A stretch of DNA of 64,000 nucleotides from Schmidtea nova (lineage: Eukaryota), in the NCBI GenBank assembly GCA_044892505.1, contig CM097883.1, positions 330,832,001-330,896,000 of the forward strand, in the 5' to 3' direction. Positions within the stretch are counted from its first letter, which is position 1; the number at the start of each line of letters is the position of its first letter. The position numbers and the translations under genes are program-made. This document shows positions 36,070 to 39,000 of the stretch, piece after piece. A model generated the notes under the pieces. It was given only the letters and a program-made list of their open reading frames with translations, made no database searches and was not told the DNA's origin.

Positions 36070-39000
36070 GTAAGTATTGATTAATTTTTAATTTTTTCAT
36101 TACATTTTGATAATTAATTTAATAATTATTAAATTTTTGTATATAATTTGTAATAATTCAAATAATTTTAACTTTGCACAAACAATTAATTTAAACAAAT
36201 TTCTTTAATATTTCTTTATTATTTTAAATTTGATATATATTTATTAAAAATTCATATTTTTATTAATTAAAATAATGCAATGCGTATTTTCTAGTGCATG
36301 AAAATTGATTTAAAAGGAGATAATGTTAGAAATAAAAGGAAATATATAATGGACGATCTTAGTGGTGAGTCGAAAATATATTTCCTTTTATTTCTAACAT
36401 TATCTCCTTTTAAATCAATTTTCATGCACTAGAAAATACGCATTGCATTATTTTAATTAATAAAAATATGAATTTTTAATAAATATATATCAAATTTAAA
36501 ATAATAAAGAAATATTAAAGAAATTTGTTTAAATTAATTGTTTGTGCAAAGTTAAAATTATTTGAATTATTACAAATTATATACAAAAATTTAATAATTA
36601 TTAAATTAATTATCAAAATGTAATGAAAAAATTAAAAATTAATCAATACTTACATTGGGCATTCAATATCACATCATTTATAACTCCATTATTCATAATA
36701 TTCTCATTATTAACAATCTTAGTTTGTACGGTAGTTTGTCCAGTCATATTTACATCACCTAAAGTAAAAGTTAAATAATTTACTAAATTAATGATCAAAT
36801 ACCATTTTCTTCTGCATTTTCTAACATCGATTTATTGATATTTATTGATATCGAATTATTGATATTACCTAAATTAATACTAAATGATAATAAATTAAAA
36901 AATAAATTTACCATTTTCTTTTCCACTTGGGTTTTCGTTCATAAAACTTGTTATAATGTTCATTTTAAATGTTTATTATTTGTTAAAGTGAATAATGAAC
37001 CTTTCTAGCAGAACCTTTATTAGCAGAACCTTTATTAGCAGAACCTTTATTAGCAGAACATCTTTTGTGATGGTTTTTATCTGCCAAAGCTTATTACTCC
37101 CACATATAGTTATTATTGTTACAATCAACATTATTTAAAATAATGCAATGGGCATGTTTTAGTGCATGAAAACTGATTTAAAAGGAGATAATGTTAGAAA
37201 TAAAAGGAAATAAATAATGGACGGTCTTAGTGGTGAGTCGAAAATATAGTTGACTTGGTAATTTGCATATCGATAATATTGCCATATTATTTGATTGCAA
37301 TGGTTGTTACTATGAAATTTAGGCAGTAATGTAAAATTTAATACCTTAATTGTGAGAATTCTATGTATTTATCCAAAACACATTTGAAAATTCATTAAAA
37401 TATAAAAATAAATTAATAAAAATATGAATTTTTAGAAAATATATGTCAAATTTAAAATAATAAAGAAATATTAAAAAAATTTGTTTAAATTAATTGTTTG
37501 CGCAAAGTTAAAATTATTTGAATTATTACAAATTATATACAAAAATTTAATAATTATTAAATTAATTATCAAAATGTAATAAAAAAATTAAAAATTAATC
37601 AATACTTACATTGGGCATTCAATATCACATCAGTTATAACTCCATTATTCATAATATTCTCATTATTAACAATCTTAGTTTGTACGGTAGTTTGTCCAGT
37701 CATATTTACATCACCTAAAGTAAAAATTAAATAATTTACTAAATTAATGATCAAATACCATTTTCTTCCGCATTTTCTAACATCGAATTATTGATATTTA
37801 TTGATATCGAATTATTGATATTACCTAAATTAATACTAAATGATAATAAATTAAAAAATAAATTTACCATTTTCTTTTCCACTTGGGTTTTCGTTCATAA
37901 AATTTGTTATAATGTTCATTTTAAATGTTTATTATTTGTTAAAGTGAATAATGAACCTTTCTAGCAGAACCTTTATTAGCAGAACCTCTTTTGTGATGGT
38001 TTTTATCTGCCAAAGCTTATTACTCCCACATATGGTTATTATTGTTACAATCAACATTATTCATTAACATAACCCATTATGATCTTTAATCAATTACATT
38101 ATCACAATGTTTCAGTTTTATCCAGTAACAGACACAAATTGTGATAGGTTTGAAAGCTTCTTACTTGAACATACATTTCACAATATTTCCGTACACTTTC
38201 ATAATATTTCAATGATAATTTCTGATGTATGTGATGATTTTCTATGTATTTTTTGATATTTGATCTGTATTTGATCTGTATTTTTGATGATTTTCTTTGT
38301 ATTTTTTATATGCTTTCTGTGTTTTCTATGTGTTTTCTATGTGTTTTCTATGTCATTTTGTGACGATATTTTGTGTGTGTGTGATGAATTTCTCTGTATT
38401 TTTGATATTTTCTGTGTATCTTTGTTGATTTTTGATATATTTTCTATGTTAAAGAACTATAGTATGATAAAACTTTGTGATGATACTTCATATATGTGAT
38501 AATATTTGTATGTGTGATGAATTTCTATGTATATTTTGATAATTTGTGTGTATGTTTGATGATTTTCATGTGTTTTGGATATTTTGTGTATTTTTGATGA
38601 TTTGTGTGTATGTGATGAATTTCTATGTATTCTTGATATTTTGTTTGCAATTCTTGATAAGTTTCAAAATATTTCTGATATTTCGTGTGTACTTTTGATG
38701 ATTTTTAGTGTATTTTCAATGTTAGTGCACTAAAGTATGATGACATTTTGTGATGATATTTCATATATGTGATGATATTTTGTGTGTGTGTAATGAATTT
38801 CTCTGTATTTTTGATATTTTCTGTGTGATGAATTTCTATGTAGTCTTGATATTTTTGTGCATCTTTGTTGATTTTCTATGTGTTTTTGATATTTTGTATA
38901 TTTTTGATGTATTTTAGATGCTATTACACTATAGTATGATGACATTTTGTGATTCGATTTTGTATGTGTGTGTTTATTTTGTATGTATGTGATGATATCC

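Follow-up and report, generated by a model that had tools for sequence, protein, structure and literature searches.

Nested fold-backs and co-copied arms in a 14-kb palindromic element of Schmidtea nova, a non-autonomous derivative of Polintons

Introduction

In the genome of Schmidtea nova, a palindrome of more than 14 kb turns back on itself around a loop of only 28 nt, which raises the question of how so long and so nearly perfect a structure was made, whether on a free molecule, in the chromosome or in the sequencing library. The locus lies in a 64,000-nt stretch of contig CM097883.1 (assembly GCA_044892505.1, positions 330,832,001 to 330,896,000 of the forward strand), which was analysed as a whole and is referred to here as the window. 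A preliminary description of its sequence had proposed that a nascent strand snapped back on a short inverted microhomology and copied itself, after at least one earlier round of duplication or inversion.

Results

The palindrome is an insertion with exact ends

The two arms (Table 1) differ by a single substitution over the 7,046 unmasked bases of a whole-arm alignment, and the 28-nt loop sits, as originally described, between TATAT and ATATA at the palindrome's centre. The symmetry of the element stops exactly at its AGT/ACT termini, which read AGTAGG...CCTACT, and never includes the flanking DNA. A 6-bp target-site duplication (TSD) borders both ends, and the host sequence, a mariner transposase, is split by the element, its frame picking up again past the right end; the palindrome with its apex is a true insertion. 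The terminus has 61 exact matches in the genome, and a 6-bp TSD was found in 16 of the 18 elements of this terminus family that could be tested at both ends. Two elements, A2 and A3, are one base apart over 5.3 kb and differ in their loci and TSDs. This terminus family has recently been mobile in multiple copies.

Within the 1.25-Gb genome, the exact apex junction was found at five loci on two chromosomes, and unfolded read-through of the same sequence at 82 loci. Three of the four other apex copies have a 6-bp TSD of their own and the remaining one ends in an N gap. Public assembled contigs at the apex, from three of four runs of one study, contained the common read-through and none bridged the apex, which is evidence in neither direction.

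Table 1. Features of the palindromic element and related loci. Positions are those of the window unless a contig handle is given.
Feature	Position	Strand	Remark
Mariner transposase, portion before the insertion	28585..29179	+	Pfam Transposase_1, E 9e-15
Left 6-bp TSD, GTCCTG	29174..29179	+	
Whole palindromic element, 14,451 bp, termini AGT...ACT	29180..43630	.	Non-autonomous Polinton/Maverick derivative
Left arm, 7,168 nt	29180..36347	+	
Terminal repeat proper	29180..29906	+	82% match to the end downstream of a pPolB gene, G000:C1:108.83 Mb
Extra 926 nt, unique to the window copy	34662..35587	+	Outer arm end 34662-35312 plus whole old loop, reversed, 35313-35587
Segment just upstream of pPolB frames in coding elements	34768..35202	+	77-88% identity; recurs at 35724-36158 and, mirrored, in the right arm
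Inner arm-end copy, 681 nt	35588..36268	+	
Opening 79 nt of the former 274-nt loop, carried by both arms	36269..36347	+	Older (primary) fold has its junction at 36268/36269
TATAT, 5' half of the 5-bp priming stem	36343..36347	+	In 74/79 unfolded sites examined
Apex loop, 28 nt, second fold-back	36348..36375	+	Junction shared by 5 genomic loci
ATATA, 3' half of the stem	36376..36380	+	The 5-nt microhomology
Right arm, 7,255 nt, 208 read N	36376..43630	-	1 substitution against the left arm, 7,046 aligned bases
Right 6-bp TSD, GTCCTG	43631..43636	+	
Mariner transposase frame resuming past the insertion	43633..43842	+	
Other-end pPolB palindromes	G000:C2:401694795-401710548; C3:118281149-118296894; C1:287925101-287939892; C1:315682530-315697885; C1:151757172-151770913		

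The window also holds repeats of other kinds. Small palindromes of another repeat family, with differing turning points, lie by AT-simple repeats at 48127-48360, 62747-62975, 61844-62126 and 8120-8650; about 29 tandemly arrayed units, each of 218-338 nt, fill positions 9300-18200 with a higher-order pattern and 9-10% GC; and stop-broken frames on the minus strand of 17-2483 resemble, by appearance, the reverse transcriptase, RNase H and integrase of an LTR retrotransposon.

The element resembles DNA beside pPolB genes

A 6-bp TSD and AG...CT ends make up the Polinton/Maverick signature in the available parts of PMC8097293 and PMC10748475, and the window element shares both, its size class being 13-15 kb. 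A profile search of the genome scored 91 PF03175 matches of 23,553 candidates and 152 integrase matches of 31,294 candidates (on three long frames PF03175 was missed by hmmscan; it was found in two of them once they were shortened, and not in L104). The genome also has elements that carry an integrase, a packaging ATPase, a double-jelly-roll capsid and pPolB.

The outer 725 nt of the window element match a terminus beside pPolB, and window-type ends flank or adjoin pPolB frames at five loci (L128, L129 and three more). The ends and inner arm match the pPolB-carrying loci L087, L092, L094, L128 and L129 as well as the P-type palindromes, and the old loop of the family, described below, is 67-79% identical to the stretch directly before the pPolB frame. 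Three short exon-like stretches with GT/AG signals lie at about 34825-35113, and one coding element has, after its last donor, an acceptor that leads into the long pPolB frame; these stretches are likely the 5' exons of a pPolB gene. Since its ends and inner arm match DNA beside pPolB genes in the same genome, the element derives from a coding Polinton-type element.

The window element was found to have no frame for a pPolB body, an integrase, an ATPase or a capsid protein, the longest stop-free frame of its arm having 105 codons. Among the 40 tblastx matches listed, no coding remnant appeared in the arm beyond the segment upstream of pPolB, and four gene-bearing regions gave no match to it; the terminal 240 nt were matched in none of seven integrase-bearing regions. 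By these likenesses and absences the element is classed as a non-autonomous Polinton/Maverick derivative and not as an autonomous Polinton, an origin that was no part of the preliminary description's account of the apex.

Several related elements were encountered. L129 (G000:C2:287236008-287243254) is 7.2 kb long, carries the window's exact 27-nt terminus at both ends, has no TSD, and holds pPolB as its sole long frame; this polymerase-only mini element represents a likely kind of ancestor. Four of the five divergent pPolB pairs examined are 14.8-15.7-kb palindromes with AGT ends. The palindromes built on the other end (13.7-15.7 kb) have a pPolB-type frame per arm, AGT ends, and a 6-bp TSD where readable, and their loops, measured in four of them, span 79-1,735 nt; at L054-L057 (G000:C1:287925101, 287939892) the flanks resemble, by eye, a tRNA-Gly gene cut in two at the 6-bp duplication. 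Miniature elements of about 350 nt with window-like termini at both ends occur in L104 (near 9660-10000) and L063 (near 5530-5880), and one such miniature sits at the centre of a pPolB palindrome. A 29-kb element with window-type ends contains long frames resembling, by appearance, a retroelement insert.

The apex is a second fold, followed by a chimeric join

Typical family members are palindromes of 12.5-13.6 kb, with arms of 6.1-6.6 kb that are 99.6-99.9% alike and an asymmetric loop of 274 nt. At 49 further read-through sites, 20 had a loop of this 274-nt type, 9 had another centre (mostly deletions) and 20 had no fold within 2.5 kb; many family copies are rearranged or lack one arm. The fold that gave rise to this family lay just upstream of the polymerase body of a pPolB-carrying ancestor and cut that body away. 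Its microhomology is unmeasurable, the unfolded relatives being only 67-79% alike at the junction. The apex copies retain this first-fold junction in both arms, and the apex is therefore a second fold inside the 274-nt loop, by which 79 nt of the loop were duplicated and about 160 nt lost, leaving 28 nt. The earlier inversion that had been postulated is thus supported: both arms bear the junction of the fold that made the 274-nt-loop family.

The postulated earlier duplication fared differently. A direct repeat does exist in each arm, as 651 nt (34662-35312) against 681 nt (35588-36268) with 12 substitutions and 30 gap columns; the 956 bp first given as its length is in fact an offset. The extra 926 nt of the window copy (34662-35587) are missing from all four other apex copies and are 99.2% identical to L172, a typical member of another lineage, while the 760 nt that follow (35588..36268 plus 36269-36347) are 100% identical to those four apex copies and to the unfolded L013 and L019. 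The junction between these parts (35587/35588, mirrored at 37135/37136) has 1 nt of overlap and occurs only twice genome-wide, once per arm of the window copy. With an outer part from the L172 lineage and an inner 760 nt shared with the apex copies and two unfolded copies, the window copy is a chimera that was made symmetric afterwards. Rather than preceding the apex, the duplication most likely followed it and is unique to the window copy, since its segment is absent from the other apex copies, its junction is private and its repeats match two lineages. The apex itself was found on three arm backgrounds 2-10% apart.

The apex stem predates the fold

TATAT is present in 74 of the 79 read-through sites examined, indicating that the stem existed before the fold. 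The preliminary description had relied on a diverged sister of the apex sequence within the arms, and this sister was indeed found, at 35472-35593 (minus) and 37130-37251 (plus), 92.6% identical and continuing past ATATA. It bears out the read-through, but it carries TAAAT where the apex has TATAT and so cannot by itself show that the stem pre-existed; the copies elsewhere do. The microhomology, originally put at 5-7 bp, is an exact overlap of 5 nt, the lower end of that range. Taken by itself, an overlap of this length has P=0.025 under a random-join null in this AT-rich DNA and is suggestive only, so that the claim is carried by the family-wide excess reported below.

The minimum-energy fold of the unfolded parent has the register of the apex. 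The parental hairpin is nevertheless marginal (-2.9 kcal/mol, z 0.29, ensemble frequency 0.001), and stems of at least 5 nt are within reach for 82 of 275 loop end positions, so that the apex site is not special. A thermodynamically special hairpin at the apex was rejected on these grounds: the stem permits the fold without singling out the site.

On the loop strand, at 36349-36370, an ATG is followed by a donor-like GTGAGT motif, antisense to the presumed pPolB exons; this is probably a matter of chance, the coding relative being without it.

Independent fold-backs share an excess of microhomology

Junctions were taken from the first 100 of 398 motif hits, where odd arm spacing marked them out, and from the read-through list, and a close parent was required. 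Six clean, independent fold-backs met these terms, with microhomologies of 5, 7, 1, 2, 4 and 3 nt against a null mean of 1.09 (P=2.1e-4), and the excess persisted when the window apex was removed (P=1.6e-3), even as two of the six junctions have an overlap of just 1-2 nt. Left out of the six-junction test were three further centres carrying inserted bases (L066, L067 and L078), L068 (mis-centred), L093 and L099 (which lack an anchor or a centre), the older-subfamily centres L069, L072-L075, L077 and L083 (without a close parent) and the nine "other" centres. L068, later read by eye outside the test, is a seventh fold-back with 7 nt of microhomology. The comparison with the apices of other family members that had been called for thus yielded the same apex at four further loci and microhomology at other fold-backs, and the proposed snap-back on a short inverted microhomology is supported both by the apex and read-through loci and by the family-wide excess.

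Loops in the family range from 4 to 274 nt. L067 lands in, and L068 leaves from, the same tract as the apex. At four of the nine junctions looked up, the template was left within 6 nt of the loop border (a post hoc observation; binomial P 0.0002-0.003); L071 was not placed on the reference in this look-up, and by BLAST it lies 30-40 nt into the arm.

The arms are copied from one another

The two arms of an element are co-copied. Within-element differences between arms amounted to 0-6 substitutions per about 5.3 kb in 10 elements. Over about 5.3 kb the window copy has 1 substitution between its arms and stands 3.6% from the nearest other element; 55 of its private bases are in both arms and 1 is in one arm, and T3 and T6 have 37 and 57 private bases common to both arms. 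Best matches taken block by block switch among relatives along the arm, with both arms bearing the same mosaic; the family recombines freely.

Discussion

We consider it probable that the apex arose by self-primed snap-back on the 5-nt TATAT/ATATA stem while an already palindromic family member was being copied. This reading builds on the nested junctions, the pre-existing stem, the microhomology excess, the co-copied arms, the bounded symmetry and the 6-bp TSDs. The 274-nt-loop family arose when a pPolB-carrying ancestor was folded immediately upstream of its polymerase body; a second turn inside that loop produced the window apex, with the removal of about 160 nt; the window copy alone joins the outer and inner parts of two lineages at 35588, in both arms, and it was inserted with its 6-bp duplication. 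From arm co-copying and bounded symmetry we infer replication as a free molecule by a helper's polymerase, with folding presumably occurring outside the chromosome during protein-primed strand-displacement replication by the helper's pPolB. Past the loop, the new strand would pair with its own first arm and copy it, the second arm being thereby rewritten from the first. Identical arms would result from snap-back in register and a new apex from snap-back out of register; a strand that jumped to a sibling molecule and then snapped back would yield a symmetric chimera such as the window copy. The weak parental hairpin would have to be held by the polymerase, perhaps once proofreading has shortened the 3' end to ATATA, and integration would rely on a Polinton integrase acting in trans.

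The main rival to self-primed copying is host fold-back repair with gene conversion in the chromosome, in which an integrated palindrome broke in its loop, repair folded the end on microhomology, one arm converted the other and the product was mobilised later. Long palindromes are fragile, and the many rearranged or one-armed family copies agree with such a history. Human inverted duplications, in the part of PMC3907307 available, likewise fold back around a spacer flanked by 2-8 bp of inverted microhomology, though with spacers of 0.8-70 kb and a rearranged chromosome, whereas loops in the window family span 4-274 nt and the symmetry lies within a mobile element. Repair in the chromosome fits less well because the symmetry halts exactly at the termini, never taking in the flank, and because the loop shrank from 274 to 28 nt, whereas chromosomal palindromes tend to stabilise by losing symmetry. 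The 926-nt chimeric join stands in both arms and whole 5-kb arm mosaics are common to the two, and we hold a chromosomal origin to be unlikely.

Less likely still is that both duplication and inversion came first and that the window lineage refolded independently at a hot-spot TATAT. The occurrence of the apex on three diverged arm backgrounds would agree with this, as would the use of the same tract by L067 and L068 and the perfect inner match of the unfolded L013 and L019, by which the inner donor need not have been folded; but the same base-exact junction would be required two or three times, the 35588 join is in no unfolded copy and only in the window element's two arms, and free recombination in the family would move an apex between backgrounds cheaply. 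An artefact of the library or of assembly, for instance a fold-back chimera produced by whole-genome amplification, had been named at the outset as what could overturn the account, and strand-displacing amplification does make fold-backs at short inverted matches. Yet the same junction recurs at five loci on two chromosomes with distinct flanks, four of the five having their own 6-bp TSD and the fifth ending in an N gap, the arms keep small differences, and the mariner frame resumes past the right end, a point at which a chimera would read back into the left flank. An artefact is accordingly very unlikely, the most improbable of these explanations.

Among known systems, Foldback/Galileo cut-and-paste transposons have 7-9-bp TSDs and a P- or Mutator-type transposase partner; the window element has a TSD of 6 bp and homology to pPolB-carrying elements, and an identity with Foldback/Galileo was rejected. 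Its terminal and inner-arm DNA is homologous to elements of the same genome that carry pPolB, but an autonomous Polinton has terminal inverted repeats (TIRs) of 100-1,500 bp around genes for pPolB, integrase, ATPase and capsid, whereas the window element lacks all of these and has 7.2-kb arms covering all but 28 nt. Its ends read AGTAGG and not the (AGT)2 form seen in the L194-L198 elements, and no integrase-bearing element with its terminal repeat was present among the seven examined. In derivatives of the yeast killer plasmid pGKL1 and in end-duplicated adenovirus DNA, the end of a terminal-protein replicon is folded into a hairpin or palindrome that is helper-dependent; unlike the window family, these are not known to integrate or to spread as a genomic repeat family.

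Snap-back defective viral genomes, as far as the available part of PMC13506859 describes them, are similar in their near-full-length self-complementarity, in having a replication origin at both ends and in their lack of coding capacity. They are those of RNA viruses, whereas the window element is DNA, integrated with a TSD and inherited, and its family, unlike them, has several nested folds and recombination between lineages. The window element, filed as a non-autonomous Polinton derivative, would seem to work like a snap-back defective genome. The proposal that Polintons pass through a racket-like single-stranded intermediate (as described in the available part of PMC4196379) fits a molecule folding on itself. 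The short palindromes at the termini of polinton-like viruses (10.64898/2026.07.28.741278) and the gene-bearing TIRs of 2 kb (10.1101/2025.02.07.637071) are, from what is available of these reports, related but different, and PMC6431247, PMC4046053 and PMC3014272, likewise available in part, serve as background only.

By title or abstract, no description of palindromic Polinton derivatives was found; the founding paper, Kapitonov and Jurka (2006), reportedly covers non-autonomous Polintons and may already describe such forms. What this locus adds is a parent allele still unfolded, a test of microhomology across independent junctions, an ordering of three nested events and private variants common to both arms.

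A more general reading, which we put forward tentatively and rate at somewhat less than an even chance, is that Polinton replication routinely proceeds via self-primed snap-back, the giant palindromes being integrated, heritable snap-back defective genomes whose apices record the release of pPolB, notably at loop borders. If true, palindromes would stem from both the polymerase-free and the polymerase-bearing ends of Polintons.

Polinton replication has so far been modelled from sequence alone, as a folded single strand copied by a protein-primed polymerase, without direct evidence. Hundreds of palindromic derivatives with readable parents, junctions and arm variants make its predictions testable, namely that apices carry microhomology, that arms are co-copied, that strands leave the template at loop borders and that free hairpin molecules exist. 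A lone 5-nt stem is ordinary, and the value of this locus lies in the family-level record to which it belongs. That record carries the warning that such fold-backs should not be filtered out as amplification chimeras, and it shows that near-perfect palindromes of 14 kb can arise and insert time and again in the genome of an animal.
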